DNA of 64,000 bases, from positions 272-64,271 of the forward strand of contig ONVP01000002.1 in NCBI GenBank assembly GCA_900321315.1, given 5' to 3'. Shown here piece after piece: positions 1-15,683 of this stretch (its first letter is position 1; every line of letters begins with the position of its first letter). This DNA is from an uncultured Bacteroidales bacterium. Lineage in GTDB: Bacteria; Bacteroidota; Bacteroidia; Bacteroidales; F082. The notes under the pieces were generated by a model. That model did no database searches. It was not told where the DNA came from and was given only the letters and a program-made list of their open reading frames with translations. The translations under genes and the position numbers were made by a program.

Positions 1-1
1 A

Positions 2-820: not shown

Positions 821-1524
821 TCTAACTGACGGTTTAGCAATATCAACCTCATATCGACCAAGCCGCCGCTGTCATGGTTTTTGCATTGTTTGGGCTTTTA
901 CCCTGCCTGCCCAATGCTGTGCGGTAATGCGGCCTGTCAAAATGTGTCGTCCTCGTTCCTGCGGGCGAACATTTCGCCAGTCCACAACACCGCCCAGCGG
1001 CCGCGCGACGGCCAGCCTCAACTTCTACATCGCCCTGGGCAAGAGTCGTTTTTCAGTTCCAACTGCTTCGTCAATTCGATAGCACGAATAACGAAATCAC
1101 GATAGAACGAAAAAAAACGACAAAGGAAAAACGACACATGCCCAGGGCAGCCACATGTCAAATTGAAAGTCAATACTTCTAAGGAAATCTTATGAAAGGC
1201 CGTCGCGCTTTACCCACAGCTGAAGCATTAACCAGGCAAAAACCCCGCCAGTGGCTAACTCCAACTGTTATCATCGGGCTTTTACTGACTTGAAAGCCTT
1301 CAAAGCCTCACCGTCATTGCGGACTTGATCCGCAATCTCACAAGTCGTTAGCACGATAGTACGTTAGCACATATAACGATACGCACAGCCCTGAAGGGGC
1401 AACACGACATTAACCCGATGCAAGCATAGTGCAGCTTCGGGTAACTGCCCGACGTCCAACCTACCTAATTCAGCGGGAGGGGGAAATCGGTGTTCCCTGC
1501 GTCGCCGCTTCTTGCGCCTGCCTT

Positions 1525-1611
1525 GGTGCTGGCAAGGGTCAAGCCGAGCGGCAATCTGAAAAAATGCTGAGCTTCGTGCGCTTTTTCAGGTTGCCGCCCT
1601 TGCCCGACACC
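1525..1611. other. Extended interrupted hairpin (about 26 bp) inside a GC-rich ORF-poor block
   Basis: Paired by hand. 1550-1563 pairs with 1582-1595 (14 bp, one G-U). 1531-1538 pairs with 1597-1604 (8 bp). 1525-1528 pairs with 1608-1611 (4 bp). The loop is 18 nt. No T-tract follows on either strand. Confidence 0.6.
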
Positions 1612-2178
1612 GCCGCTGCTCTTCGCCGTCCCTCGACAAGCGTTTCGCTGCGCTCCACTGGCGCGGCTCCAGCGAGCGTTTGCGGCTCCAAGGCCAGCCG
1701 CTTTCGTGGCTCCTTGCTCGCTCGGGGCTTTCTTGTCGCCCCCCGAACCCCCAAACGGTTCTCGTACCTCGCAACTTTTTAGCGGGGGTCGCCGCGCCCC
1801 TTTAGTTTTGCGCCCCTGCTTGCGCGTCCGCCCGGCGGTTCCCTTTTCGGAGCGCTAAAGCGCATCTTGTTTCGCCCCCTCATCGTTGCCATCCCATCCC
1901 GCAAGGCTTTCGCTGGTGCCTGCCTCTTCGGGGTCGCCGCCGCAAAAGGCACACCCGCCGCCGCTTCGGATTGTAACCGTGCGCGGACTCCTGTCGGGCG
2001 GGTCGGCCGCGCTGGCGCGAACGGGGCGCAGGGTTTCCCGCTCTGGTGTAGTCCAGTTGCCCTTAGTATCCTCTTTCTCGGCTCTGTTTTTCTCTGTCTT
2101 TAGGCCGCAGGCGCTTTTCCCCCTTAACCTGCTGACCCAACGCGCATCCGTGCCACCGTCACCCCCGACCACCACCCC

Positions 2179-2212
2179 GTAAAACGGTTCAACGGCTGAA
2201 GCCGTCACCGTT
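2179..2212 (-). terminator. Possible second intrinsic terminator downstream of the M15 peptidase operon
   Basis: aacggt..acggc tgaa gccgt..accgtt two-step hairpin (2183-2212), followed on the minus strand by TTTT (plus-strand aaaa at 2179-2182). Confidence 0.4.
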
Positions 2213-2240
2213 CCACCATCAATCCCCTCCAACCACCCAA

Positions 2241-2271
2241 TAAAAAAGCCTTCACCAACTGGCAAAGGCTT
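2241..2271 (-). terminator. Intrinsic terminator of the nuclease/M15 peptidase operon
   Basis: 7-bp stem aagcctt/aaggctt (2246-2252 / 2265-2271) with a 12-nt loop. A T-run follows on the minus strand (plus-strand aaaaa at 2242-2246). It sits 28 nt after the stop at 2299. Confidence 0.5.
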
Positions 2272-2298
2272 CAAAATAAAATGAAAAGAACGAACAGA

Positions 2299-2727
2299 CT
2301 ACTTTAACTCAAAGTGGCTCTTATCGACGAAGGTTTTCCAGTTCCCGCCCCAAACGAGCTTCACATTCATTTCGCTGGCCACCTGAAACATCACTTCGGC
2401 CAAATCTTCAAATCTGGTCCAATCCACCGCCTTGCGGTTCATCGTCAGCGGGTACAAATCCACCGCCTTCCCGATGAGGTGTTTGCTTTTCATCGTGCGT
2501 GACTTTCCCTGCCTCACATACTCGCGCTGCTTTGCTTCGCTCCGCAGCCCTTCCGACACATTGAAAGGAAAAGGACAACGCTTCGCGCACTCAATCACAA
2601 TCGCCGTCAGGCGTTCATCAACGCCTTCCAGCCTCTTTTTCGATAACTCTGACAATTCCATAACTATTTCTCCTTTAGTTTGTTCCGTCCATTCTTCCCC
2701 CTTTGTAAGGGGGGTAGGAGGATTCAT
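2299..2727 (-). CDS. Peptidase M15 family (phage-endolysin-type L-alanyl-D-glutamate / D-Ala-D-Ala peptidase)
   Basis: SEGLRSEAKQREYVRQGKS...SKHLIGKAVDL...VWGGNW...DKSHFEL is the typical M15 (VanY/T5-endolysin-like) metal-binding pattern. No signal peptide. An alternative ATG at 2661 (MELSELSKKRL) is possible. The listed start overlaps the upstream stop by 4 nt. Confidence 0.8.
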   Translation of the reverse strand: MNPPTPLTKGEEWTEQTKGEIVMELSELSKKRLEGVDERLTAIVIECAKRCPFPFNVSEGLRSEAKQREYVRQGKSRTMKSKHLIGKAVDLYPLTMNRKAVDWTRFEDLAEVMFQVASEMNVKLVWGGNWKTFVDKSHFELK

Positions 2728-3365
2728 CGATACGCATCTCTTTCAAATTTGCCTATCTTCCTCCAAACCCAAGGAGCCACAGCCCGCTCGTCGCTCCACA
2801 GGCCGCGTCCGTCCTGTTTCGCTTCGGCTTCCAACGCCGAATAGGTCGGATTGCGGTCATACTCCTTGTAATGCCACGCCAATCCATGCTTCAGCATTTC
2901 AGCCCCGATGTCCTTACCGTCGAGGTAAACCGTCGCAATCCACCGCCCGTACTGGTCGCGCTGTTTCAGCTTCAGTCCTACGGTCTTCCCGCTGATGAGC
3001 CATTGAAGGTGCAGCGTGGCCACATCCCCGTAATACTGCCCTCGCTCCGGCGCGTCGATGCCGTTGATGCGGATTTGGGTCACCATCATCTGTTGCGCCC
3101 ACCATCCGCCTCCGGCGTTCTGGTCGCTCGCCGTGCGGCTACCTCCTCCCGTCGTGATGATGTTCCCCTCGAAGGTGTCGCCGTCAATGACGCGGCTCAC
3201 CTTCATCATAACTTGCTCCTTGTCATTTCCAGAAAGGCACTTCGTTACACTCGTTGCGGTATTTCCCCCTTTGGGGATAGTCAAAAGTCTGCTTTCTTTC
3301 CATTCCCGCTGGCATCCGCAAGAAAGCACAAGAAACGCGATGGCCAGCACCATTAGCTTTTTCAT
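2724..3365 (-). CDS. Secreted thermonuclease (SNase/micrococcal nuclease family) lipoprotein
   Basis: VIDGDTF, INGIDAPERGQYYG, DQYGRWIATVYLDG..GAEMLKHGLAWHY and EAEAKQDGRGLWS are SNase motifs. I trimmed the start to the ATG at 3365, giving MKKLMVLAIAFLVLSCGC (signal plus lipobox). A -7 box lies 24 nt upstream. Confidence 0.85.
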   Translation of the reverse strand: MKKLMVLAIAFLVLSCGCQREWKESRLLTIPKGGNTATSVTKCLSGNDKEQVMMKVSRVIDGDTFEGNIITTGGGSRTASDQNAGGGWWAQQMMVTQIRINGIDAPERGQYYGDVATLHLQWLISGKTVGLKLKQRDQYGRWIATVYLDGKDIGAEMLKHGLAWHYKEYDRNPTYSALEAEAKQDGRGLWSDERAVAPWVWRKIGKFERDAYR

Positions 3366-3388
3366 AATCTTATTGTTTTGATGCTTTG

Positions 3389-3396
3389 CAAAAATA
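3389..3396 (-). promoter_or_regulatory. Bacteroidota-type -7 box (TATTTTTG on minus strand) for the nuclease/M15 operon
   Basis: Plus-strand caaaaata equals minus-strand TATTTTTG and matches TAnnTTTG. It is 24 nt upstream of the ATG at 3365. Confidence 0.45.
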
Positions 3397-3483
3397 CACC
3401 ATCCATCCCGTTTGTCAGCTACGCAAACTAACGCAAAGCGAAGCAACAGAAACCATTGTAACCTATTGTAAATAAAATAGATA

Positions 3484-3491
3484 TACATTTG
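3484..3491 (+). promoter_or_regulatory. Bacteroidota-type -7 box (TACATTTG) for the first tandem paralogue
   Basis: Matches TAnnTTTG and lies 50 nt upstream of the ATG at 3541, in the divergent intergenic region. Confidence 0.45.
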
Positions 3492-3540
3492 CGAAACAAA
3501 ACCAATTAACCTCATTTATTAACTTCTAAATTTCAAGATT

Positions 3541-4209
3541 ATGGGAAAAATCAAGCAAGGAATCCTCGGAGGATTCAAAGGTAAAGTCGGGACGGTCATT
3601 GGCTCCTCTTGGAACGGCATTTCCTACATGAAAGGCCACGCCCAAAACATCAGGAACCCCAAGACCCCCGCACAGATGATTCAACGCGACTTCTTCAAGG
3701 AAGTTCAGGACCTGGCAGGTCAGCTCTCCAACGAGCAGTTGGCTTTCCTCTTTCCTCTAACCCCAAAGAACATGACCCGTCGCAACGCGCTCGCACAGCA
3801 GCTCGCCGCCGACCCCGTCGTCACTGACGATGCAAAGCACGTCGATTTGGCCAACATCACCACCCTCGGCAATGCGCCTACCGCCGACCTGCCGGATGCC
3901 ACCATCATAGCGGCTGGTGAAAACCTGACCATCTCCTGGGACGGCTCCACCGACTACCGCGCCGCCCACTCCGACGAGTTCCCGACCGTCTTTGTGGCCA
4001 ACGTCACCAAAAAGAAGGTCTATCTCGTCAATTCCACTGTGGCCTTCGGCCAATCTGGAAACCAATCGTTCAATGTTGGCCTTTCCGCCTATGGCGAAGC
4101 CACCGACACTTTCTCGGGCTTTCTCCTCTCCACAGGCGCAACTTCTCCTCATTGGCATGGCCACCTTTGCGTTAGCGAGCGTCCTGCCCGCGTCAAGAGG
4201 AACGCCTAA
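3541..4209 (+). CDS. Uncharacterised protein, tandem paralogue 1 of 3 (conserved Gly-rich N-terminus, basic C-terminal tail)
   Basis: MGKIKQGILGGFKGKVGTVIGSSWNGISYMKG... is near-identical at the N-terminus to the ORFs at 4363 and 5065, while the DNA differs mostly at synonymous sites. It has its own terminator at 4232-4259. Confidence 0.8.
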   Translation: MGKIKQGILGGFKGKVGTVIGSSWNGISYMKGHAQNIRNPKTPAQMIQRDFFKEVQDLAGQLSNEQLAFLFPLTPKNMTRRNALAQQLAADPVVTDDAKHVDLANITTLGNAPTADLPDATIIAAGENLTISWDGSTDYRAAHSDEFPTVFVANVTKKKVYLVNSTVAFGQSGNQSFNVGLSAYGEATDTFSGFLLSTGATSPHWHGHLCVSERPARVKRNA

Positions 4210-4231
4210 CAGCGTATTCGCGGACATCCTC

Positions 4232-4259
4232 AAAAGCCGTCCTTACGGGCGGCTTTTTT
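4232..4259 (+). terminator. Intrinsic terminator after paralogue 1
   Basis: aaaagccgtcc ttac gggcggctttt: 11-bp stem including one G-U, tetraloop, then a T-run. Confidence 0.7.
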
Positions 4260-4362
4260 AAGAGATTTCCGGGGCATGGTCAAGTAGGGTTCAAGTCTAT
4301 ACCAACTCCGAGTCAGGTTCGCAAAATCTAAACCAAGTATTAACCAATAAAAATTCTGAATT

Positions 4363-5037
4363 ATGGGAAAAATCAAACAGGGAATCTTAGGCGGATTCAA
4401 AGGAAAAGTGGGAACCGTAATAGGCTCCTCGTGGAACGGCATCGCCTACATGAAAGGCCTTCCGCAATCAGTCAGAAACTCGAAGTCTGCCGCTCAAATC
4501 AAGCAGCGCGACTTCTTCAAGGAGGTGCAGCAAATCGCTAGCCAACTCACTGCCGAGCAGCTTGCCTTCCTGTACCCGTCATCGCCCAAGGGCATGACAC
4601 GACGCAACGCCATCGTCCAGCAGCTTTCTGAAGACCCCATCGTTGAGGCCGACAGCAAACATGTGGACTTGGCAAACCTAAAAACCCTTGGCAACGCGCC
4701 AACGGCAGAGCTGCCAGAGGCATCCTTTTCCGTTGATGGCAACAACCTCGCCATCTCATGGAACGGCGCAAGCGGCTGGCGCACCGACCATGCCGATGAA
4801 TACCCTACCGTATTCGTGGCTAATGTCACCAAGAAAAGAGTGTTCCTCATCAACTCGCCTGTCGCCTTCGGCGCAGCTGGAGAATGGTCATTCATTGTCG
4901 GTCTGTCTGCCTACGGCGAAGCCTCCGACACCTTCAGCGGTTTTCTCCTTTCCACAGGCGCACAAACCGCACAAATCGGCTTCGGAACGATGGGCGTATG
5001 TGAACGCCCTGCCCGTCCACCCAAAAAGAACAACTAA
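4363..5037 (+). CDS. Uncharacterised protein, tandem paralogue 2 of 3
   Basis: Similar to paralogue 1 along its whole length (e.g. KHVDLAN..TLGNAPTA.LP, PTVFVANVTKK.V.L.NS.VAFG, GLSAYGEA.DTFSGFLLSTGA). C-terminal tail is ERPARPPKKNN. Confidence 0.8.
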   Translation: MGKIKQGILGGFKGKVGTVIGSSWNGIAYMKGLPQSVRNSKSAAQIKQRDFFKEVQQIASQLTAEQLAFLYPSSPKGMTRRNAIVQQLSEDPIVEADSKHVDLANLKTLGNAPTAELPEASFSVDGNNLAISWNGASGWRTDHADEYPTVFVANVTKKRVFLINSPVAFGAAGEWSFIVGLSAYGEASDTFSGFLLSTGAQTAQIGFGTMGVCERPARPPKKNN

Positions 5038-5064
5038 ATGTCTAACCCCTAAACAAGTAAAGCA

Positions 5065-5751
5065 ATGGGAAAAATCAAACAAGGAATCCTCGGCGGATTC
5101 AGAGGCAAAGTCGGTACAGTTATCGGCTCCTCATGGAATGGCATTTCTTACATGCGCGGTCAGGCGCAATCTGTCAGAAACGCCAACACACCTGCACAAC
5201 AGGCGCAACGCGCTTTCTTCAAACAAGTTCAGGAACTCACATCGCAACTCTCTGATGAGCAGCTTGCCATGCTGTTCCCGTCGGTCACACGCGGCATGAC
5301 GCGCCGCAACATGCTCACCCGTCAGCTTTCGGCTTGCCACGACTACGCTTCCGATGTCAAAACCTTCAATCTCTCCTTGCTGGAGGGCATCGGCAACGGT
5401 GAGCGCATCGATACGCCAATGCTGACCCTTACGGCTACCTCTATTGGCTCTCCGGCTAATCCAGTGACGGGCATCGTCATCGACCAGACTGTTGTCGCCT
5501 CAATCAACAAACCCGCTTCAGCTTGCTTCTCCGTTGTGGCCTACAACCTGACGCAAAAGAAGATAACCGTTTTCAACACGTCCTTTTCGGACTCCAACGC
5601 CAACCTGACCGTCGAAACAGGCAGCTTTGCCACCGATGGCGACAACATCCGCTGCTATTTGACCTATCAGTATCAGCGGAGAGGTGGTTTCGGCACATTG
5701 TCTATCGCAAATCGCCCTGAGCGCGACAAAGAGAAGAAAAAGAAATCCTAA
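5065..5751 (+). CDS. Uncharacterised protein, tandem paralogue 3 of 3 (divergent C-terminal half)
   Basis: The first ~95 aa align with paralogues 1 and 2 (MGKIKQGILGGFRGKVGTVIGSSWNGISYMRG...MTRRN). The rest is divergent. The tail GGFGTLSIANRPERDKEKKKKS retains the GFGT...RP.R motif. Confidence 0.8.
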   Translation: MGKIKQGILGGFRGKVGTVIGSSWNGISYMRGQAQSVRNANTPAQQAQRAFFKQVQELTSQLSDEQLAMLFPSVTRGMTRRNMLTRQLSACHDYASDVKTFNLSLLEGIGNGERIDTPMLTLTATSIGSPANPVTGIVIDQTVVASINKPASACFSVVAYNLTQKKITVFNTSFSDSNANLTVETGSFATDGDNIRCYLTYQYQRRGGFGTLSIANRPERDKEKKKKS

Positions 5752-5763
5752 AACTTTGCCGCT

Positions 5764-6018
5764 ATGTCACTCTACGAATGGATAACAACGCTCCTTGCGC
5801 CCGTCACAGGCATCGTCACTTGGTTTGCCGCCACGCGCCACCGTCAAAACCAAGTCATCAAGGAGATGCAGCACACCATCTATGAACTGGTCCAAGAGAA
5901 CAAGCGCGTCTATGCGGAACTTACTGAAGCTCGCCGTGAAATCGTCGGGCTTACCGCACAGGTTCGGCAGTTGAACATCGAGAATGAGGAACTGAAACAG
6001 ATGATTGAGAAGCTATGA
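5764..6018 (+). CDS. Small membrane protein: N-terminal TM helix plus coiled coil (holin/i-spanin-like architecture)
   Basis: WITTLLAPVTGIVTWFAA is hydrophobic and is followed by heptad-like ELVQENKRVYAELTEARREIVGLTAQVRQLNIENEELKQMIEKL. Its stop overlaps the next start (ATGA). Confidence 0.6.
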   Translation: MSLYEWITTLLAPVTGIVTWFAATRHRQNQVIKEMQHTIYELVQENKRVYAELTEARREIVGLTAQVRQLNIENEELKQMIEKL

Positions 6019-6482
6019 GAACGCGCATCCTTTTCCTCCTCCTGATGTCGATGGTTATGTGTGCTTGCAACGCGAACCGCAGAGCGCAGCGCCAAATCCG
6101 TAGAATAACGGAACGCTGCCCGGAACTCCACACCGTGCAAGCACACGCCTTCGACACGCTCCTCACGGTCGCGCCCGTGGCCGACAGCGCAGCCATGCCA
6201 CTCCGCCCGCTCCTCGAAGGCCAACCCGTCACGGTCAAGACGAAGCAAGGCACTTTCACCGCGACCGCTACGGATGACAGCCTCACCATCACCTACGAGG
6301 CGCAGCCCGAGCCAATTCATTTCACGGACACGCTGCGCTACGCGCAGGTCGTCATCAGCGAGGAACCGCCAAACAAGAAACCGCCCAATGCCGTTTGGTT
6401 TCTGCTCGGTATGGTGTTGGTGCTTGTGGCTATCCTCGCCTTCGTAATGGCAACCATTATTAAGCAAGTCAAGGCTTCCTGA
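6015..6482 (+). CDS. Lipoprotein with C-terminal TM anchor (unimolecular-spanin-like architecture)
   Basis: MRTRILFLLLMSMVMCAC is a signal plus lipobox-like Cys. The C-terminal AVWFLLGMVLVLVAILAFVMATII is a TM helix. The gene is translationally coupled to the upstream ORF. Confidence 0.6.
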   Translation: MRTRILFLLLMSMVMCACNANRRAQRQIRRITERCPELHTVQAHAFDTLLTVAPVADSAAMPLRPLLEGQPVTVKTKQGTFTATATDDSLTITYEAQPEPIHFTDTLRYAQVVISEEPPNKKPPNAVWFLLGMVLVLVAILAFVMATIIKQVKAS

Positions 6483-6501
6483 CAGGGAGCCTTCCTTTTT
6501 T
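6471..6501 (+). terminator. Intrinsic terminator ending the paralogue/membrane-protein operon
   Basis: aaggcttcc tgaca gggagcctt: 9-bp stem (one G-U) followed by cctttttt. It overlaps the stop codon at 6480-6482. Confidence 0.65.
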
Positions 6502-6925
6502 CTGGCCGTCGCTCGATGGGCGGTATTTCGGCTCTGTTGTAGTGTAATTGTTTATCCAAAATAAGCCAAAGATTGCAGGGGTGCTTCAACCTTTTTTTGT
6601 TGAGCATTACGCAATCTTTGTCTTATTTCGGCTGTAAATTGGGTTGCGTTTTCCCGTTCTCGTTTCTCCGACATCCTCTATTTCCTCCATTTCCGCTTGG
6701 TCAATGAAAACGATTCGGAGGGCTGCCTGCCAGCCAAAGGATGCGGAGATGAGCAACACCTTCTTTATTAAGCTTATAGGCCGCATCCTTCGTCTGTCAG
6801 TCAGGTTCCCATTTTGCCCAAAACGGCGCAAATTATGGTCTTTATGGTTGTTTATCAAAAAGGATTTCGTATCTTTGCATCGCACTTATAATCAAGCATT
6901 TAAGCAGTCCAAATACTTATTTTTA

Positions 6926-6954
6926 ATTTGCAACATATTTGCAACATATCTTTG
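6926..6954 (+). promoter_or_regulatory. 11-bp tandem repeat (atttgcaacat x2 plus a partial) ending in a TATCTTTG -7 box
   Basis: atttgcaacat atttgcaacat atctttg read directly. TATCTTTG (6947-6954) matches TAnnTTTG. The palindrome attgat-t-atcaat follows at 6961-6973. Confidence 0.4.
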
Positions 6955-7027
6955 TATCTAATTGATTATCAATATATCTTAATTTTGAGGAGGTGAAGTA
7001 AGCACTTCTTAAATCACTATCAAAAAA

Positions 7028-7059
7028 GGTGTAATCCGAAAGGGTTACGCCTTTTTTTT
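7028..7059. terminator. Bidirectional-looking intrinsic terminator in a gene-free low-GC stretch
   Basis: ggtgtaatcc gaaa gggttacgcc: 10-bp stem (two G-U). It is flanked by an A6 run upstream and a T8 run downstream. Confidence 0.65.
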
Positions 7060-7321
7060 GTTTTTTCCTCTGATTGAACGGTGTAAGTATGTTGCTGGCA
7101 CTTTTTCCCCTCTCGGTTTTCTCAACGCACACAGGCAATGAAGCCGTCACCCCCGTTGTCAACCCAAGAAAAGGTCAGGTCGCTCCGCAAAGTTCCGCTC
7201 AGTACCTCTATCGTCCCCACCGCTACTCTAATTCAAGAATTTGTACAGCGGCTTCTCCGTAAACTCCGATTTATGTTCATCATTATTCTATGTTTTCTAT
7301 TGATACTTTCGGAATAAAACG

Positions 7322-7329
7322 TAAATTTG
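7322..7329 (+). promoter_or_regulatory. -7 box (TAAATTTG) upstream of the 737-aa ORF
   Basis: Matches TAnnTTTG and lies 80 nt upstream of the ATG at 7409. Confidence 0.4.
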
Positions 7330-7408
7330 CAACTTCACATTTTGTTTGTACAGAAATGGTGATACATGAATGAAATTATAAAATGACATAATTACACTTA
7401 ATTAAACT

Positions 7409-9622
7409 ATGCGAAATTTTGCTATCATTAAAGATTCCCAATATAGTGTTATAGATCAATACCGTCGCTATCTGAACTATGCTGTTAACCATCCTCTTTT
7501 AGATAGAGAGGATGCTGTTTATGATTATAATTTCATGCAGCAATTAGGAGTTCTTCAAGCTGACGAAATACAAAATGTCATCAAAACAAATGGTGATGTG
7601 CTGTATGAAGGAATCAAATACACCAATTCTAATATTCAAGAATTATCCTCTACTATTTCGCATAAAATGGATTATGTAGCCCAAGGCCTTACTTCATCAT
7701 TAGAAAAAGGTTTTACTCAAATGGAGATAGAACTTGGAAAAGCTAATCAGCAATTGTCTAATATCAATAGTAATTTAAGCGATATAGGAAATTCTGTCAC
7801 AAGAGGGTTTTCTGATTTGAGAGCAGGACAGATTCACACTCAAGAATTGTTAGAGGGTTTTAGAAAACAAGTTGGCAAATCTTTTGAATTTGTGATACAA
7901 AAGATTGAATTATCAAATATTTATTTAGCGGCAATCTACCAAGAGATGAAAATTCCAGAGTTCCAAAGAGAAAGACGGTATTATATGGAACAAGGAATAA
8001 AGTATATAAAAATAGCTATTAAAGAAAACGACAAGCTGTATTATGAAGATGCAGTTAATGCCTTTCAGAAAGCAATAGAAATATCACCAGATGATTATTT
8101 TTCATGGTTTTATCTTGGATACATATATCTTAACTCAACATATTTTCTTGATATAAATAAAGCCAAAGAATCATTTGAGCATTACATACACTATGTCCGT
8201 CCAGAAATCGAGTCAAGCAAACAAACTCGTTTAATACATCAATTAGATAGTGTGTATTTATATATGGCTGAAATCTCATATTTAAAAGGAGAGTTAGATG
8301 ATGCTGTCGAATGGACAAACAAATGTGCCCCTAATGAGAAGGTTATATTTTTGAAAGCTAAATATTTATCGGCATCAAGTGATAATTCTCATAAGTGTTA
8401 CATGGCTGCACAACTATTAAAAGAAGTCATTAGCAAAAACCCGTTTTTATCTTTGCAAGTGTTAGAAGATGCTGATTTAATTAGCAATGATAGTGTTATT
8501 ACTATGCTTAATCTATTAAAGAACGAAGCAGTTTCCCGTGCAAAAAGCATAGTTAATGGCATTAAGGCAAAATGTATGGAATATGACGGATTTAGTCAAG
8601 CATTTACTGAAGTATTAAAGATTGAGAAAAACTTACAATCCGAAACATATCTAGAAGCATGTGAAGCAATAAACATTCTTAATAAACGCATGAATTGGGT
8701 TATAAAAAACCATCAATTAAGTTTTACCTCCTCTATTGTCGATTATTGTAATAATTATATCTCTTGTCTTAACAATTTCGTCAATTCAAATAGCAACCTT
8801 CCTATTGGGATATGTGTAAAGTTCCTGAAAATATACGATAAAGTACTAATCATATTTAATGATACAGAAACTCAACGTTGCAAAGAAAAACTATTAAGTT
8901 GTTTCGATAATCTAAAATCCTCTATATTACGTAAATATACAGAGCAATATAATCGTGTTCAATATAGATTAAATGATTTAAAAGATTATACAACGGTTCT
9001 TATGTCTATGTTGTCAATTCTTGAACCATTGAATAAATATATTCCATATTCAGAATCAATTAATTATAAAAACTATAATACCGAAGATTGTGATTTAGAA
9101 ACGAAAACATTTGGCGTTCCAGCATATTTTCGGGATCGGTGCATATCTGCTTTTGAAAACTCAAAAACCAGATTGAGTATTGTTAAATTAGAAATAAATG
9201 CGTTAGTTGAGAAATCACAGTATTTTCAAAATATACTTCAGTTATTAAAATCATGCACATACTTAAATTGTAAATTAAGTTTGTTTTACGATGGACAGGA
9301 TGATACGATTATAGACAATAAAGTTGATGATTTTAATATAATCGAAACACTTACAAAAAAATACCTTGATTATGTAATAGCAATTAGCCATATACCCTCA
9401 TCTGTCCCAAAATATCCTGGCTTTGGCTTTTTAGTCCCTTTTCAATATGCAAGATGGATAGCTGTTTGCAATCGGGCAATGAACAATAACAGAGATTTAA
9501 TTTCTACAGCAAAAGCGGTTAATAAAAAAATGCATACTTTGTATAAGGATTTAAAGCAGCGCAATTTATTATTAACCAACCATATGCACATTCCTTGGTA
9601 TGGCCTCGACGATTGGAATTAG
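7409..9622 (+). CDS. Large orphan protein with N-terminal coiled-coil region and TPR-like repeats; no enzymatic motif recognised
   Basis: A 737-aa uninterrupted ORF in very AT-rich DNA. YYEDAVNAFQKAIEISPDDYFSWFYLGYIYL and ISYLKGELDDAVEWTNKC look like TPR units. The N-terminal 100-190 region is heptad-like. Confidence 0.7.
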   Translation: MRNFAIIKDSQYSVIDQYRRYLNYAVNHPLLDREDAVYDYNFMQQLGVLQADEIQNVIKTNGDVLYEGIKYTNSNIQELSSTISHKMDYVAQGLTSSLEKGFTQMEIELGKANQQLSNINSNLSDIGNSVTRGFSDLRAGQIHTQELLEGFRKQVGKSFEFVIQKIELSNIYLAAIYQEMKIPEFQRERRYYMEQGIKYIKIAIKENDKLYYEDAVNAFQKAIEISPDDYFSWFYLGYIYLNSTYFLDINKAKESFEHYIHYVRPEIESSKQTRLIHQLDSVYLYMAEISYLKGELDDAVEWTNKCAPNEKVIFLKAKYLSASSDNSHKCYMAAQLLKEVISKNPFLSLQVLEDADLISNDSVITMLNLLKNEAVSRAKSIVNGIKAKCMEYDGFSQAFTEVLKIEKNLQSETYLEACEAINILNKRMNWVIKNHQLSFTSSIVDYCNNYISCLNNFVNSNSNLPIGICVKFLKIYDKVLIIFNDTETQRCKEKLLSCFDNLKSSILRKYTEQYNRVQYRLNDLKDYTTVLMSMLSILEPLNKYIPYSESINYKNYNTEDCDLETKTFGVPAYFRDRCISAFENSKTRLSIVKLEINALVEKSQYFQNILQLLKSCTYLNCKLSLFYDGQDDTIIDNKVDDFNIIETLTKKYLDYVIAISHIPSSVPKYPGFGFLVPFQYARWIAVCNRAMNNNRDLISTAKAVNKKMHTLYKDLKQRNLLLTNHMHIPWYGLDDWN

Positions 9623-9643
9623 TTTAATCAATTAGTAAGATCC

Positions 9644-9718
9644 CTTCAGCCGCACATCAGCACCCTCACCAAAGCAAAAACCGTCCGCGCTTCGGCATTC
9701 ATTATCATGATGTTTTGG
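9644..9718 (-). pseudogene. Decayed 3'-end remnant of a small XRE-family HTH gene (repeat copy 1)
   Basis: The minus strand reads ...EARTVFALVRVLMCG*, which aligns to copy 2 (ARTVFALARALGCG...). The core ccaaagcaaaaaccgtccgcgc is identical. A 2-nt indel relative to copy 2 shifts the frame. Confidence 0.5.
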
Positions 9719-9840
9719 CAAGAGGCGAATTTCGTTCAATGAAGAATAAAACCGAAGCGTTATTATTTAGACTTTGTATAAATTAACCTATAAGTTTATT
9801 ATTTTGACAGTAATAGTAGCTTTATTTCAGAAATAAAGTC

Positions 9841-9848
9841 TATTTTTG
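9841..9848 (+). promoter_or_regulatory. -7 box (TATTTTTG) upstream of the HigB-like ORF
   Basis: Matches TAnnTTTG and lies 43 nt upstream of the TTG start at 9891. Confidence 0.45.
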
Positions 9849-9890
9849 CATCGTCAACCGACAAAAGTAAACCTGTAAGTTTATATCGAA

Positions 9891-10445
9891 TTGGAACTAA
9901 TAGCTATATATCCACCATACATCTACAGCGTTCAATATGATGATGTAGAGGAAAACGAATTCGACAGATTGTTCCAACAATGGAATGATTTGGAGTATGT
10001 GACGCAGTTCTTTGAAATTTTTCAAGATTATCTGAAATCCCCAGTTTGGCAAAAAACACCTGAGCCAGAAGATGCTACACTTCAAGTATTGCAAGAAGCT
10101 ACTGATTTAGAAGACCTTTTTGAAGAATTATACAATAACACCAAAAATAGTATTGTAGGAAAAGACTTTGATTCTCATTTTTATTATTTGGATGGAAAAT
10201 ATCAATTTGAGAAGGAACGACCTCCCATGAAATCTTATGGGACAAATCGACCTTCACTACTAAGGATATACGCCATAAAGATGAATACAAACACATACCT
10301 AATAACAGGAGGAGGAATAAAATTGGCTGATACGATACAGAACTCTCCAGATTTAAAAGAGCACGTTTTGAATAACATCGACAAAGTCAGGCAATTCCTC
10401 AAAGCAAATGGCATCATGGATAGTGATGATATGGAAAACAACTAA
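9891..10445 (+). CDS. Putative toxin: RelE/HigB (Gp49/DUF891-like) C-terminal region with a ~110-aa N-terminal extension
   Basis: SLLRIYAIKMNTNTYLITGGGIKLADTIQNSPDLKEHV resembles the RelE/Gp49 core strand-strand-helix. It is followed by an XRE gene in toxin-then-antitoxin order. Only a TTG start is available, because an in-frame stop lies at 9876-9878. Confidence 0.45.
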   Translation: MELIAIYPPYIYSVQYDDVEENEFDRLFQQWNDLEYVTQFFEIFQDYLKSPVWQKTPEPEDATLQVLQEATDLEDLFEELYNNTKNSIVGKDFDSHFYYLDGKYQFEKERPPMKSYGTNRPSLLRIYAIKMNTNTYLITGGGIKLADTIQNSPDLKEHVLNNIDKVRQFLKANGIMDSDDMENN

Positions 10446-10467
10446 TCAACTTAAACAATTTACAATT

Positions 10468-10899
10468 ATGGCATTTAACCCGGAAAAATTGGCCGCATTA
10501 GCCAAACCTCGCAGCGAAGAGGCAAGAGAAAAAGCACGAATCCGAAAGGAAAACCGTAACTGGTTGAGAATGTCCCAGGAAATAGCTCTCTGTCTGCATT
10601 ACTATCTTCGTAAGGCAGGGCTAACTCAAAAAGAGTTGGCAGATAAAATGGGGGTGTCGGCAGTATATGTTGGAAAACTTTTAAAAGGAGGGGAAAACAT
10701 GACCCTTGAAACCATCTGTAAGATTCAGAACGTAATTTGTGAAAACATAGTTGCTATAGCAAAACCGTATGTTAGCACTACAGTAATAAGTTTCCCTTTC
10801 CAGTATAGATTCTCACCCGATGCAATAACTAGCGAAAGATTCTCTGACAATCAATTATCACATGAAAATTATGTACCAATGGCTAACGATGCCGCCTAA
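10468..10899 (+). CDS. XRE-family HTH antitoxin (HigA-like) with a long C-terminal tail
   Basis: GLTQKELADKMGVSAVYVGKLLKGGENMTLETICKI is a canonical XRE HTH. I trimmed the start to the ATG at 10468. About 50 aa of aromatic-rich tail follow the HTH. Confidence 0.8.
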   Translation: MAFNPEKLAALAKPRSEEAREKARIRKENRNWLRMSQEIALCLHYYLRKAGLTQKELADKMGVSAVYVGKLLKGGENMTLETICKIQNVICENIVAIAKPYVSTTVISFPFQYRFSPDAITSERFSDNQLSHENYVPMANDAA

Positions 10900-10911
10900 A
10901 CACTTGAGACA

Positions 10912-11337
10912 ATGGAACCACAAGTAATGTATAGATTTAGCAAAATGGAACTTGAGCAATTTGCCATGTTTGAAGAGAATTGCAATCCAGAACCGAATGA
11001 AGTCCAATTTCATACCGAAGCGCAGTTTTCGTATGACAAAGATAATTACATACTTTGCAGTAAGATTATCGTTAACATGGCATCTCAGGAAAAGCCATTA
11101 GTAAAAGCTGAATTAAAAAGTTATTTCAACCTTTTGCCAGAGTCAGTTGAAAACTTGCGTAAGGACGGTCGTATCATGTTTGCTCCGCATTTGCTAGTCC
11201 AATTTGCATCTTTATGCTATGGCTCAATTCGTGGGGTAATCTTTGCAAAAACAATAGGCACACCTATTAATAATTACGTCTTGCCACCAGTGTATTTTGC
11301 GAATTTGATTGACAAGGGGTTTGTTGTTGAGGATTAA
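10912..11337 (+). CDS. SecB-like chaperone (third component of a TAC-type toxin-antitoxin-chaperone module)
   Basis: It is 141 aa. FAPHLLVQFASLCYGSIRGVIFAKTIGTPINNYVLPPVYFANLI parallels E. coli SecB [36 protein letters not shown]. The N-terminal and middle strands also line up. Confidence 0.55.
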   Translation: MEPQVMYRFSKMELEQFAMFEENCNPEPNEVQFHTEAQFSYDKDNYILCSKIIVNMASQEKPLVKAELKSYFNLLPESVENLRKDGRIMFAPHLLVQFASLCYGSIRGVIFAKTIGTPINNYVLPPVYFANLIDKGFVVED

Positions 11338-11399
11338 TGTTATCAGATGATTATAATAGCGCGATGCATAATTGTGTATCGCGCTATTTTTACTTTGTA

Positions 11400-11609
11400 T
11401 TACCCACAAATCACCTCAGCCCCACACCCCAGCGCCCTCGCCAAAGCAAAAACCGTCCGCGCCTTGGTTTTCATGATGTCTTGGTCGCCTTGCTCGTATG
11501 CCTGGATCATGCGAAGGGTGACGCCCGACAATTCGGCCAGTTCCTTTTGGGTGAAATGGGATTGCTTCCGAATGGTTTTCAGGGATAAAAAACAAAAAAG
11601 GTGTGCAAA
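11400..11609 (-). pseudogene. Near-complete small XRE-family HTH gene lacking a canonical start codon (repeat copy 2)
   Basis: The minus strand reads LSLKTIRKQSHFTQKELAELSGVTLRMIQAYEQGDQDIMKTKARTVFALARALGCGAEVICG*. The frame is open only to 11609, with no ATG/GTG/TTG before the HTH. It may still be expressed from CTG or be 5'-truncated. Confidence 0.55.
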
Positions 11610-11638
11610 TTAAAAAATAATGTGTATTTTTGCACACC
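11600..11638 (+). promoter_or_regulatory. Perfect 10-bp inverted repeat (ggtgtgcaaa / tttgcacacc) overlapping a TATTTTTG -7 box: candidate autoregulated promoter/operator
   Basis: The IR arms are 11600-11609 and 11629-11638. The -7 box is at 11625-11632, 38 nt upstream of the ATG at 11670. Confidence 0.5.
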
Positions 11639-11669
11639 AAATCAAGTCATCAATAAAAAGGGGGTAGTT

Positions 11670-12716
11670 ATGGAAAATGTTTTTGCACAGCGACTTATCA
11701 ATGCACGAAGGATTCGAGGGATTTCTCAAAGAGAACTTTGTGCACGGCTGGGTGGTCGGATTTCAAGTAATGCCATCGCCAAATACGAAACGGCGAAGAT
11801 GATTCCATCGAGCCAAAACCTGATTGCCATAGCTGAAGCTCTTGATTTTGGAATCGATTATTTCTTTAGACCATTCACCGTGAGCATTGATTACAATAGC
11901 TTCGAGTTCCGCAAACGGTCGAGCCTTCCCGCCAAAAAGGAAACGGCCATCAAAGAGCGCATCGCGTTGTTGATTGAAAAATATAGCGAAATAGAGAATA
12001 TTACACACGATGGAGTTCCGTTTAACCTTACTTATGACCAGGTGCTGTTGAGCAGTGACAACGACGCCCGATCGATCGGAGCACGCTTCCGTCAAGATCT
12101 TAACCTGGGTACCGACTGCATTTCCACGCCCATCGAAGTACTTGAAAACAGCGGAGTAAAAGTGATTGAGATTGACGCTGACAAGAAATTCGATGGTAGT
12201 TGTCTGAAAAACATAGAACTGCCAGTTATAGTCCTCAACAGGAACATCATTTCTGAACGCCGTCGCCTGACGCTTTTCCATGAGTTGGCGCATATAGTAT
12301 TGCGGTTCAACGAAGGAGCTGATGTGGAACGCTTGTGCAATATTTTTGCCAACGAAGTGCTTCTGCCATCAGCAGTGCTGAAATCGCTGTTAGGCGAACA
12401 TCGCAAAAGCCTCTCTTGGAAGGAGTTAAAACTGATACAAGAGAGTTATGGAATTTCGGTTGATGCCATCCTTGTGAAAGCCAAGCAAATAGGAATCATC
12501 AGTGAAGCATCGCACAGGTCTTTGTGCATCGAGCTAAATCGAAATCCTGAACTGAAACAGAGAGTGCAGGCAAGCGTATATCACAAAGAGGAATCGTCGC
12601 GTTTCGAACGATTGGTTTACAAGGCATTGTCCGACAACCTGATTACTTTATCGAAGGCTGCCGACCTGCTTGATTGTTCCGTTGACCAAGTGAATGCACA
12701 ACTGACATTAGCGTGA
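11670..12716 (+). CDS. XRE HTH fused to an ImmA/IrrE-family (COG2856) zinc metallopeptidase
   Basis: N-terminal RGISQRELCARLGGRISSNAIAKYETAKMIPS is an HTH. TLFHELAHIVL is the HEXXH motif, in the usual ImmA/IrrE context. Start trimmed to the ATG at 11670. Confidence 0.85.
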   Translation: MENVFAQRLINARRIRGISQRELCARLGGRISSNAIAKYETAKMIPSSQNLIAIAEALDFGIDYFFRPFTVSIDYNSFEFRKRSSLPAKKETAIKERIALLIEKYSEIENITHDGVPFNLTYDQVLLSSDNDARSIGARFRQDLNLGTDCISTPIEVLENSGVKVIEIDADKKFDGSCLKNIELPVIVLNRNIISERRRLTLFHELAHIVLRFNEGADVERLCNIFANEVLLPSAVLKSLLGEHRKSLSWKELKLIQESYGISVDAILVKAKQIGIISEASHRSLCIELNRNPELKQRVQASVYHKEESSRFERLVYKALSDNLITLSKAADLLDCSVDQVNAQLTLA

Positions 12717-12717
12717 T

Positions 12718-13233
12718 ATGGAGATAGTGGTCAACGATACGCAGGTGCTCATCGACATGTACGATGCTGATTTATTGGGACTGGTTGAACGTTGTTCTAT
12801 CAAGTTCCACACAGTAGATTACGTATTGGCAGAGTTGCACCGTTCGCCCTATAAGCGACCTGAAATTGACCAAATGGTAAAAGACGGTATACTGGAGGTC
12901 CATTCTTTTAGTGACAAGGAGAACGTTGATTTGGTGGCTTATTATGGTAAGATGGCCATGCAGACAAACCTTTCGTTAACGGATTGTGCAGTTTTGAAGT
13001 ACTCGAAAGACAACGGCTACCGACTGCTTACGGGCGACAAAAAGTTGCGTAATCACGCAGAAGATGAAGGTGTGCTGGTTTCTGGCATCCTTTATCTTGT
13101 TGACAAATTTGTTGCAGAACAATTGATTACGGGTACAGTCATGGCGGAACGATTAGAAATGCTGTTGAAAACAAATCCACGATTGCCAAAAACCATATTC
13201 GAGGAGCGGATTAAGTCACTACAGGGTTTATAA
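12718..13233 (+). CDS. PIN-like nuclease domain protein (DUF3368/DUF4411-type), partner of the ImmA/IrrE gene
   Basis: VVNDTQVLIDMYDADLL...VLAEL and LSLTDCAVLKYS...LLTGDKKLRNHAEDEGVLVSGILYLV fit the PIN acidic-residue pattern. Its start lies 2 nt after the upstream stop. Confidence 0.65.
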   Translation: MEIVVNDTQVLIDMYDADLLGLVERCSIKFHTVDYVLAELHRSPYKRPEIDQMVKDGILEVHSFSDKENVDLVAYYGKMAMQTNLSLTDCAVLKYSKDNGYRLLTGDKKLRNHAEDEGVLVSGILYLVDKFVAEQLITGTVMAERLEMLLKTNPRLPKTIFEERIKSLQGL

Positions 13234-13256
13234 TCGATGAAATCCTTTTGCATCAC

Positions 13257-13312
13257 TCAAAAATCACCTCCGCCGCACACTCCAGCACTCTCGCCAAGGC
13301 AAAAACCGTTTG
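13257..13312 (-). pseudogene. 3'-end remnant of the same XRE-family gene (repeat copy 3)
   Basis: The minus strand reads TVFALARVLECAAEVIFE*. By my count, 43 of the first 49 aligned nt are identical to copy 2 (11408-11456 vs 13261-13309). Confidence 0.55.
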
Positions 13313-13334
13313 TGTGTAGGTTTAGAAAAAACCT

Positions 13335-13342
13335 TACCTTTG
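13335..13342 (+). promoter_or_regulatory. -7 box (TACCTTTG) upstream of proline iminopeptidase
   Basis: Matches TAnnTTTG and lies 29 nt upstream of the ATG at 13371. Confidence 0.45.
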
Positions 13343-13370
13343 CCCCCGACAAACCAAACCTCATCAAACC

Positions 13371-14255
13371 ATGAATCAACATCCCATCCAAGAAGGATAC
13401 ATGCCCTATTTGGGCTATCAGACTTACTACCGCATTGTCGGTGAACCCTCAGACAAACCCGCATTGTTGCTGCTGCATGGCGGACCAGGCAGCACGCACA
13501 ACTATTTCGAGGTGTTGGACTGCATTGCCGAAACGGGCCGACAGGTGATTTCTTACGACCAAATTGGTTGCGGCAACTCCTATTTGGACGGCCATCCCGA
13601 GCTATGGACCCAGGAAACTTGGATCAACGAGCTCATCGCTTTGCGCGAACATCTGCACCTCGACCAAATCCACATCCTCGGTCAGTCGTGGGGTGCCATG
13701 CAGGCCATCGCCTATATCATTGACTGCCAGCCTAAAGGCATCAAGTCGGTGATTCTTTCTTCGGGCCATGCCTCCAGCTCGCTTTGGGCCAGTGAGCAAC
13801 ACCGCCTCATCAAGTACATGTCTAAAGAAGACCAAGAAGCCATCCGTCGCGCTGAGGCCACCGGCAAATGGGACGACCCCGACTATCTCCGCGCCAACGA
13901 GCATTATTTTGAGCGTTATGTCATCAGCATCGATGAGCACTCGCCCGAATGTCTCCGCCGACCTAAACGCGCGGGCAACGAAGCCTATCTCTACGGCTGG
14001 GGACCCAACGAATACCAACCCTTAGGCGACTTGGCCGATTTCGAATACACCGATCGTCTCGGTGAAATCAAGCAACCTTGTCTGATTTGCAGCGGCACCC
14101 GCGACATCTGCACCCCAGTGGTGGCCGCCTCGCTCTTTGAGAACATCCCCAACAGCCGCTGGGAAGTCTTCAAAGGCGCGCGCCACACCTGCTTCGTGGA
14201 ACAGACGGACAAGTATTGCGACATCCTTAGGCCTTGGTTGGAGGAACACGATTGA
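13371..14255 (+). CDS. pip: Proline iminopeptidase (alpha/beta hydrolase)
   Basis: LLLLHGGPGSTHNYF and the nucleophile elbow GQSWGAMQA are present. Length and layout are typical of PepI-type prolyl aminopeptidases. Confidence 0.85.
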   Translation: MNQHPIQEGYMPYLGYQTYYRIVGEPSDKPALLLLHGGPGSTHNYFEVLDCIAETGRQVISYDQIGCGNSYLDGHPELWTQETWINELIALREHLHLDQIHILGQSWGAMQAIAYIIDCQPKGIKSVILSSGHASSSLWASEQHRLIKYMSKEDQEAIRRAEATGKWDDPDYLRANEHYFERYVISIDEHSPECLRRPKRAGNEAYLYGWGPNEYQPLGDLADFEYTDRLGEIKQPCLICSGTRDICTPVVAASLFENIPNSRWEVFKGARHTCFVEQTDKYCDILRPWLEEHD

Positions 14256-14361
14256 GGAAGAAACCTACTTCATTTACAAAAACCACTTTATTCAGCCAAA
14301 ACACCACAAAAACACCCCGTTTTGGCTGAACAAAGTGCCTTATGTCACTCACAAATCACCC

Positions 14362-15570
14362 TCACAAATAAAACCGAATCCCAGCCTTGAGGTTGAATCG
14401 CTGTAGGCCTTCTTTGGTATTACCCATGTCTATGTCTTCCTTGTGAGTGCCGTCGTCATAGGTCGCATTCGACAAGGCACCGATGTAATACGAAGCCTCC
14501 GCGCCGATGGCGATATGCTGCGTAAGCCTGTAATCGTAGCCGAATCCAAGGCCCAAGCCGAAAGTGTGTCCTTTCAATGTGTATTTGTAGCCAAATTCTT
14601 CGGCACTGTCCTTGTAGCCCAAGTATCCGGCGAGGGCTTCAAGATTCAACATGTGCTTGCCGTTTCTGGAAGAGGCCGTCAAAGCGCCGAACGACATGCC
14701 TATGAAAGTGATGGTATGGATGTTGCTTACTGGCCCTTCATAATAGTTGCCTTCATCATCGTAGGTATAGAAATAGCCCGCATTGCTGCTCGAGAACTGG
14801 TCATAATGCAAGCCAAAAGTGACCCCGTTTGTGATATTGAACCGAATGCTGGCGCCATAGTCAGGGCCTCGCGACAGCTTTTTCAGATAGTCCTTGTAAT
14901 CGCCCGAAAGGTTGTTGGAAAACTTTGCCGTCCTGAAAGCATAGCCGACGTTCAACGCGATTTGCACGTGGTACTCTTTCTTTTCGCTCTCGGCTTTTCG
15001 CCGGGCCAACTCCACAGGGTCGTTGATGTAGTAATGCGGGACATCCGTCAAAAGCAAACGGGTGAGTCGTCTGATGCCGTTACGTTCATAGAGAAAGGCG
15101 ATATACTTGTCGGTTTTGTCGGTAACAAGGCATGGGATGGTGTCGCCGTCTTTCAAAACCACGTAATCATGGAAGTTTTCTTTTGCCGTTTCCGACAAGG
15201 CAACAGGTTCTATATCATCGCTGATATTCAGCATGTAAGCCGTAATTTGGTGGCAGTAGCTGCCGTTTTGTCCGGGGAAGCTGTGCTGCACAATCTCGAT
15301 GCCGTTGCCGCCTGCAGCCCGCACCTCTTGTTTGGCCGTTTCAAGAACGGTTTCCCAGTCGCAACGCGTGGTGAATCCTCCGTCCAACACGGACACGTTT
15401 CCTATGACTTCCGCGTTTTCGGGGACGACCTCGCCAATATTGTACACCGTCACTTCGGTATCGTTGCCAACGGGATGCCTTTCCTTGATGATGTGCTTGT
15501 GAACCTTCGGGGAACAAGAACAAAGCCAGACGGCCAGAATGACAAGGATGTAAAGATTTTTGTTTTTCAT
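14362..15570 (-). CDS. Hypothetical lipoprotein with a beta-barrel-like C-terminal half
   Basis: MKNKNLYILVILAVWLCSCS is a signal plus lipobox. The C-terminal half is rich in alternating G/Y/F strands and ends in ...LKAGIRFYL, which is OMP-like. Confidence 0.65.
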   Translation of the reverse strand: MKNKNLYILVILAVWLCSCSPKVHKHIIKERHPVGNDTEVTVYNIGEVVPENAEVIGNVSVLDGGFTTRCDWETVLETAKQEVRAAGGNGIEIVQHSFPGQNGSYCHQITAYMLNISDDIEPVALSETAKENFHDYVVLKDGDTIPCLVTDKTDKYIAFLYERNGIRRLTRLLLTDVPHYYINDPVELARRKAESEKKEYHVQIALNVGYAFRTAKFSNNLSGDYKDYLKKLSRGPDYGASIRFNITNGVTFGLHYDQFSSSNAGYFYTYDDEGNYYEGPVSNIHTITFIGMSFGALTASSRNGKHMLNLEALAGYLGYKDSAEEFGYKYTLKGHTFGLGLGFGYDYRLTQHIAIGAEASYYIGALSNATYDDGTHKEDIDMGNTKEGLQRFNLKAGIRFYL

Positions 15571-15616
15571 ATTCTGTTAATTTTGGATTTGTTATTCATT
15601 TCATTCATTTTTCAGT

Positions 15617-15681
15617 CTGTAGGGACACATCGCATACATCCGTTGGTTGCATTGGCGGACACACGCGGTGTGTCCCTACAG
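15617..15681. repeat. REP-like palindromic element / terminator hairpin (ctgtagggacaca ... tgtgtccctacag)
   Basis: Perfect 13-bp arms at 15617-15629 and 15669-15681. An alternative inner hairpin ggacacac gcg gtgtgtcc lies at 15657-15675. It is immediately downstream of the minus-strand gene ending at 15684. Confidence 0.6.
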
Positions 15682-15683
15682 GG

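Follow-up and report, generated by a model that had tools for sequence, protein, structure and literature searches.

Prokaryotic conflict systems typically carry modules of the FGS, WD40 and TPR types in a strictly C-terminal position, a syntax that the relevant sections of Kaur et al. 2020 (PMC7159879) set out for FGS domains. The locus considered here is a stretch of 64,000 nucleotides (nt), hereafter the window, from contig ONVP01000002.1 of an uncultured Bacteroidales bacterium (assembly GCA_900321315.1), and within it an ATG-started open reading frame (ORF) at 7409..9622 (+), a single frame encoding a protein of 737 amino acids (aa). As in the NTP-dependent conflict systems treated in those sections, relatives of this protein carry FGE-sulfatase-like, WD40 and TPR parts strictly C-terminal to a constant N-terminal part. 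Unlike the systems described there, it has no STAND, vWA-MoxR, GTPase or enzymatic effector, either within the protein or alongside. It is a member of a large, unnamed family whose N-terminal module of about 435 aa is constant and whose C-terminus is swapped between clades. For the window's clade we tentatively favour the reading of a mobile recognition scaffold with a conflict-related role.

Three other kinds of protein invite comparison. ZorA, of the Zorya system, has a long signalling tail, and the N-terminal coiled coils of two relatives match ZorA-tail positions in PADLOC (P0022, E 1.1e-7; P0054, E 5.2e-4); a further relative, P0045, resembles Zorya in having a transmembrane helix and an OmpA/MotB-like domain. 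The window protein, unlike ZorA, has no MotA/ExbB channel domain, no transmembrane helix and no ZorA match, and the similarity seen in the two relatives may reflect coiled-coil composition only. Exchangeable apolipoproteins (ApoA-IV, ApoLp-III) are alike in their amphipathic helices of about 3.67 periodicity and in giving weak profile matches, but the window protein is bacterial and cytoplasmic, the E-values are marginal and the likeness is one of sequence only. Compared with generic TPR scaffolds (the Pfam TPR clan; e.g. Sti1/Hop, PDB 4gcn), the window protein adds near-invariant IPEFQRERRYY, D229, SWFYLG, KYLSA and LEDxDL, an N-terminal cap with long helices, and helices at 361-435 (TYLEA...NW) that fall outside any named TPR family.

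The gene is real, intact and under purifying selection. Full-length homologues are 53-99% identical, and the ratio of nonsynonymous to synonymous substitution rates (dN/dS) is 0.18 against the homologue in a buffalo-rumen metagenome-assembled genome (locus L014) and 0.27 against that at locus L022; by part, it is about 0.10 in the TPR region and 0.27-0.38 in the faster-evolving C-terminal part. The gene is single-copy in its own genome, and the stretch is present in bovine-gut metagenome runs from at least seven studies. Pieces of the ORF, covering parts of it, also occur in contigs of three RNA libraries from three studies (X16 and X19, at 0-1 mismatches; X17, as a diverged copy). Since RNA libraries can contain DNA, transcription of the ORF is compatible with these data rather than proved by them.

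The original prediction, which was made from the letters of the DNA, spoke of a single long ORF with its own -7 box, in very AT-rich DNA of foreign origin, and all three points are borne out. The guanine-plus-cytosine (GC) content of the gene is 0.307, versus 0.515 for the window outside 7000-13300; along the window it is 0.30-0.35 at 7-10 kb, is back to about 0.50 by 13 kb and amounts to 0.49-0.58 elsewhere. The TAnnTTTG pattern is the Bacteroidetes consensus -7 box. It occurs 65 times in the window versus 33 times expected from shuffles, once in front of the gene as TAAATTTG and again just ahead of genes of the neighbouring cassettes (9841, 11625 and 13335).

Foreign origin is further indicated by comparison with related DNA. 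One relative (G011) is without the 737-aa gene at the same junction, where a module resembling the PADLOC candidate PDC-M64 comes immediately after a full-length dnaK with its terminator; compared with it, the extra stretch in the window runs from 7067 to about 9759 (about 2.6-2.7 kb), taking in the gene and the first copy of a repeat described below. One DNA contig of run X2 joins 7057 to 9661, omitting 2603 bases that include the gene, and this junction is weak evidence because the shorter side of the contig is only 30 nt. The cassette so delimited contains, on the forward strand and besides short overlapping frames, one ORF of at least 50 aa. In the buffalo-rumen genome the homology extends over the ORF alone (7404-9621, 85% identity at the nucleotide level), and the flanking genes there encode a CoA-transferase, a thioesterase and a BKACE protein. 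Since the ORF alone is shared, among unrelated genes, the 737-aa gene is an independently mobile single-gene unit. Its GC content lies 6-17 points below that of the flanks in nine of ten loci of the window's clade, and a sample of 300 further genomes of the order contained the module only once (E<=1e-15; up to three candidates scored per genome).

On the left, the cassette adjoins a short remnant of a dnaK 3' end. An X2 contig of 3015 nt has the gene directly 3' of a dnaK 3' end, and contigs of X2, X16 and X17 extend leftward into it. The intact dnaK of the window's own genome lies on another contig (L037, G000:C265), with different downstream DNA, and the presence in the window of a dnaK tail separated from its gene means either that the entire spot has been transferred or that the assembly was joined at about 6984. 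Island content directly 3' of a full dnaK is also seen in G011 (L010, G011:C67, 9288-11303) and in X2 contigs. We considered whether the island could be the end of a prophage and rejected this, as it offers only weak holin-like PHROGs matches (an 84-aa ORF at 5764) and no phage relatives.

The protein had been called an orphan, a description that does not stand. A word-index search returned six proteins (99, 87, 82, 67, 53 and 27% identical), whereas an exhaustive HMMER search with a profile built from these six gave 784 cluster representatives at E<=1e-3, 417 of them at <=1e-10 and 66 at <=1e-30, which overturns the near-orphan status. Nearly all these matches cover query positions about 1-430 and diverge beyond. 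The same columns are invariant or nearly so in alignments of 6, 19 and 69 sequences (A1, A3 and A4), namely the N-terminal cap, IPE-x-QRERR-Y/H, D229, SW-aromatic-x-x-G, KYLSA and LEDxD, and the window protein carries all of them. Ten clusters that were looked up bear uninformative names ("TPR repeat protein" or "hypothetical"), the 435-aa module is not spanned by any model in Pfam or NCBIfam, and no description of the family was found in the portions covered of the full-text literature, including PMC7159879 and PMC13092281 with supplements aside, which is no proof of absence.

Beyond the constant module the relatives differ widely. A Pfam scan of the C-terminal parts of 149 of them found WD40 in 12, WG_beta_rep in six, FGE-sulfatase in three, further TPR arrays in three, and OmpA, Fib_succ_major, Lcl_C (below its cut-off), Flg_new and S1 in one each; the others show nothing known. 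Of 153 relatives, 66 are predicted to have one to three transmembrane helices, in every case C-terminal to the conserved module. The OmpA or Fib_succ_major domain of P0045 and P0058 comes after a basic stretch and a single transmembrane helix, which puts the conserved module on the cytoplasmic side. In a tree built with FastTree from 163 core-domain sequences, rooted at the midpoint and serving for description only, three groups separate, one largely transmembrane-anchored, one rich in WD40, and the window's own, in which the type of C-terminus changes repeatedly.

Within the window protein three parts can be told apart, all predicted to be helical, in agreement with the helical remainder noted at the outset. 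The N-terminal parts, when aligned, differ by indels of whole repeats. An AlphaFold2 (AF2) model of aa 1-444, based on the 69-sequence alignment, has a mean predicted local distance difference test score (pLDDT) of 81.8 and a predicted template modelling score of 0.66; it shows a short cap and long helices over aa 1-181 at modest confidence (helices 40-68, 73-94, 98-145 and 149-181; pLDDT about 45-80) and a very confident solenoid of helical hairpins over aa 184-425. The N-terminus had been described as heptad-like: the amphipathic periodicity is there but a strict heptad is not, the hydrophobic periodicity of 3.6-3.7 being nearer to a hendecad or amphipathic pattern. Ahead of the solenoid stands the near-invariant motif IYxE(M/L)(K/R)IPEFQRERRYY (aa 176-191), and the solenoid itself bears D229, SWFYLG, KYLSA and LEDxDLxxN. 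The TPR-like units that had been read from the sequence are confirmed by one Pfam match above its cut-off (TPR_17, aa 218-242, 26.5 bits against 24.4); matches to TPR_11, TPR_2 and TPR_1 fall short of theirs. As in the TPR clan generally, the hairpins form a right-handed solenoid, and the middle part of the protein is an ordinary TPR fold. Foldseek searches (PDB with the full model, BFVD, and a wide search with both models) returned generic TPR matches only, over aa 180-370. In the ESM Atlas, aa 1-200 gave no usable match, and the clusters matched by aa 170-440 were unnamed or generic TPR ones, which serve as leads only. The C-terminal domain, when searched alone, matched five close relatives and nothing else, so that no other architecture appears to carry it.

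No enzyme or defence model in Pfam, PADLOC, PHROGs or NCBIfam matched the window protein, and neither a Pfam NTPase match nor a Walker A motif ([AG]xxxxGK[ST]) of a P-loop NTPase was found in it, as expected from the earlier statement that it bears no nuclease, ATPase, protease or TIR motif. At E<=0.1 none of the families of PADLOC-DB v2.0.0, whose coverage does not extend to systems described after 2023, matches it. Likewise no transmembrane helix is predicted (maximum Kyte-Doolittle 19-mer, 1.53).

The gene encodes a soluble, cytoplasmic, all-helical modular adaptor. Under the tentatively preferred reading, that of a mobile recognition scaffold, its variable C-terminal domain would bind a target, and the constant coiled-coil/TPR module would provide the output, whether it assembles, sequesters something or recruits a host partner that is conserved. 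Such an adaptor would act non-catalytically in genetic conflict, whether in phage defence or in an addiction-like function. The gene is not half of a toxin-antitoxin pair as usually defined, given a cassette of one ORF and no conserved neighbour in 12 loci; a single-protein addiction function may be compatible with a one-gene cassette. The original prediction that the protein is stand-alone agrees with the lack of a conserved partner gene in the 12 loci of the closer clade whose flanks were scanned, and its placement among toxin-antitoxin cassettes agrees with the right-hand neighbours, which are candidate toxin-antitoxin or defence modules by PADLOC. A bolder version, which we consider rather unlikely, is that the constant module is a new immune output device: the swappable C-terminus would sense something foreign, such as a phage component, whereupon the N-terminal helices would assemble or form a coat on the membrane and halt either the cell or its invader in an enzyme-free manner, with the resident WD40 versions being domesticated or ancestral.

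Several observations weigh against a conflict-related role. Neither an effector or NTPase domain nor a PADLOC model was recognised in the window protein, and at E<=1e-3 72 of 76 relatives had no PADLOC match either; the matches of the other four involve coiled-coil, OmpA or WD40 parts only, outside the conserved module. Relatives were not found in viral contigs or in phage or plasmid records (queries aa 1-444 or alignment A4). Of the 12 loci, only two have clear defence neighbours: at L016 the gene lies between an nSTAND3-like giant protein (just below cut-off) and AbiEii, and at L031 a BrxL-like gene is two ORFs away. Neighbours are ambiguous in three (L017, L018 and L027) and metabolic, housekeeping or uninformative in seven. 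The WD40 branch also weighs against it. WD40-type members (about 770 aa) were found in 10 of 12 genomes from family f183 and all 3 from family f171; in seven of 12 loci the gene is directly 3' of a B12-binding radical-SAM gene; genes for an ABC-ATPase or cytochrome oxidase come after it; and its GC content equals that of the flanks in 11 of 11 loci. This branch thus behaves like a vertically inherited cellular gene. Since it is near-universal, syntenic and native in composition, the constant module also has a resident, apparently housekeeping function, and the family as a whole, with such a branch in two Bacteroidota families, is not dedicated to defence. The original prediction had named homologues mainly in housekeeping contexts as grounds against itself: this is indeed the situation of the distant WD40 branch, whereas the close branch behaves like mobile accessory DNA. 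Across the phylum, matches were found in 18 of 400 other genomes sampled, seven of these matches being in family f167 and to the TPR part only, and one WD40-type member aligns to aa 229-462 of the window protein at 24% identity (E 4e-11). The loci that join a WD40-type gene to the B12 radical-SAM gene are L062-L071 (G333, G511, G409, G507, G451, G546 and G495), possibly a functional pair.

One must therefore consider an alternative that is nearly as likely as a conflict-related role, though itself tentative, namely that the module is an accessory scaffold organising some cellular process, for instance at the membrane or envelope, with the C-terminus only targeting it, and that the copy in the window is a horizontally acquired variant playing no part in defence or addiction. 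The resident WD40 branch, near-universal and syntenic in its two families and equal to its flanks in GC, speaks for this explanation. The C-terminal membrane anchors of 66 of the 153 relatives, one with a peptidoglycan-binding OmpA domain past its transmembrane helix, also fit this explanation, as do the unremarkable surroundings in seven of the 12 closer loci and the lack of defence-model matches. It sits less well with the sporadic occurrence in the order (one in 300), the low GC relative to flanks in nine of ten loci, the variable presence of the gene between close strains, its position within a stack of toxin-antitoxin or defence-candidate cassettes, and a C-terminal domain that evolves fast and is often swapped in the window's clade.

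A quite improbable alternative is a membrane-acting effector, in which 11/3-periodic amphipathic N-terminal helices would insert into or coat membranes once the C-terminus is engaged, leading to an arrest of the abortive-infection type. The hydrophobic periodicity would suit such a role, many relatives are membrane-anchored, and weak profile matches point the same way, both in the window protein (ApoA-IV, E 7.6e-4; ApoLp-III, E 0.086) and in relatives (Apolipoprotein A1/A4/E in P0074, E 9.5e-6; MakB in P0037, E 0.0018). Yet all these matches are of the weak sort that coiled-coil composition yields, the window protein has no hydrophobic segment, and the model has low confidence in the N-terminal region.

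Still less probably, the protein could work together with the adjacent cassettes in a multi-gene system, for instance as a sensor for the PDC-M64-like module or for the RmrA/PIN-like one. These are indeed adjacent, share its strand and its low-GC island, and have the same repeat punctuation. But each cassette has its own -7 box, the 737-aa gene occurs apart from those cassettes in the buffalo-rumen genome and at other loci, and the PDC-M64-like module with its repeat (window 9761-11467) occurs apart from the gene at 75% identity in G011, after dnaK (L010 7722-9296), and at 78% in G002, before an Mrr-like gene (L011 408-2108), both being genomes of the same genus. That module with its repeat is thus a mobile unit by itself. 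Finally, a decaying or functionless remnant of foreign DNA, which the extreme composition and the single TPR as sole known domain might suggest, is very improbable given the intact 737-codon frame, its dN/dS of 0.18-0.27, full-length homologues in several contexts and recurrence across the metagenome studies.

Should the conflict-related reading be true, the gene would specify a single-gene, enzyme-free defence or addiction protein, built of a constant helical module and a swappable sensor or anchor, unnamed and with no model in current defence catalogues, and it would be a testable candidate from the rumen Bacteroidales, a group poorly covered by experiment. Should the accessory-scaffold alternative be true, the finding would be an ordinary one. 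Irrespective of function, the analysis reveals a large unannotated family whose 435-aa module is sharply conserved and which has one mobile and one resident branch, as well as a variable spot downstream of dnaK that stacks cassettes, each closed by the same gene-remnant repeat. The features of this spot are listed in Table 1.

Table 1. Features at and around the 737-aa gene, in window coordinates
Feature	Position	Strand	Basis or remark
Remnant: last 18 nt of dnaK (...FEEVK*) and terminator hairpin	6985..7066	+	Full Hsp70 gene ends here in G011
Single-gene cassette, approximate limits	7058..9660		X2 contig junction; G011 comparison
GC-rich intergenic element, 5' of gene	7083..7263	+	Second copy 1975-2182
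-7 box TAAATTTG	7322..7329	+	TAnnTTTG pattern, 80 nt 5' of ATG
ORF, coiled-coil/TPR adaptor protein	7409..9622	+	737 aa (stop codon counted), ATG start; full-length homologues
N-terminal cap (M-x-x-F-S...S...Q-Y...L) and long amphipathic helices	7409..7960	+	aa 1-184, conserved; repeat number varies
TPR-like solenoid, family-specific	7961..8713	+	aa 185-435
Helical C-terminal domain, subfamily-specific	8714..9619	+	aa 436-737, pLDDT about 50-88
Repeat copy 1: decayed 3' end of XRE-type helix-turn-helix (HTH) gene	9622..9698	-	77-nt direct repeat
Three-gene cassette like PADLOC candidate PDC-M64, including HTH_3 protein	9891..11337	+	Pfam/PADLOC matches
Repeat copy 2, longest remnant, HTH part included	11394..11581	-	77-nt direct repeat
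HTH and ImmA/IrrE (M78) RmrA-like protein, PIN-like PDC-S70-like protein	11601..13233	+	Pfam/PADLOC matches
Repeat copy 3, right end of low-GC island	13247..13323	-	77-nt direct repeat

The 77-nt repeat is present in three direct copies, one closing each of three units. Copy 2, when read on the minus strand (...KARTVFALARALGCGAEVICG*), corresponds to the 3' end of a gene for an XRE-type HTH protein, of which an intact 224-aa homologue exists in the same genome (C236:5466-6140). Recombination at the 3' end of this gene may be how cassettes stack here. That intact copy is paired with a 225-aa upstream ORF and lies beside a McrBC-like cluster and frr (C236:5466-6771, L012). We also considered integron-type gene cassettes. 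Folding of the three repeats in an attC-like manner was no better than that of shuffles (z -0.4 to 0.2), and a scan of ORFs across 1-32 kb detected no recombinase domain; as the repeats moreover match an HTH gene's 3' end, this candidate was rejected. In the right-hand cassette, the scores were E 1.2e-43 for RmrA, E 1.1e-6 for PDC-S70 and E 0.005 for the Pfam PIN domain. The core genome resumes with an alpha/beta hydrolase gene (start, 13371), of which G007, G015, G008 and G002 have copies of 85-86% identity.

The GC-rich element 5' of the gene is about 100 nt long, with the core ...GGCCGCAGGCGCTTTTCCCCC...CAACGCACAGGCAATG...GTCACCCCCG..., and its two copies (1975-2182 and 7063-7263) lie in direct orientation on both sides of a DUF6266 cluster. 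It is also found 5' of the 737-aa homologue at L022 (3-201) and at the start of contig C92 of G008 (L013, 33-470), where tandem units of about 77 nt follow. Rfam gave no match in window 1-16000, this element included. The cluster itself (2299-6482) encodes an M15 peptidase, an SNase-like nuclease, three DUF6266 paralogues, an 84-aa membrane/coiled-coil protein with weak holin-like PHROG matches and a 155-aa protein with a lipoprotein-like N-terminus, and it recurs in G002, G007 and G008 at 68-80% nucleotide identity. Farther along the window, a second low-GC patch (27328-30457; 0.39-0.44) encodes a 471-aa MutH-like (Sau3AI-type) endonuclease followed by a 573-aa C-5 cytosine methyltransferase, likely a type II restriction-modification pair.

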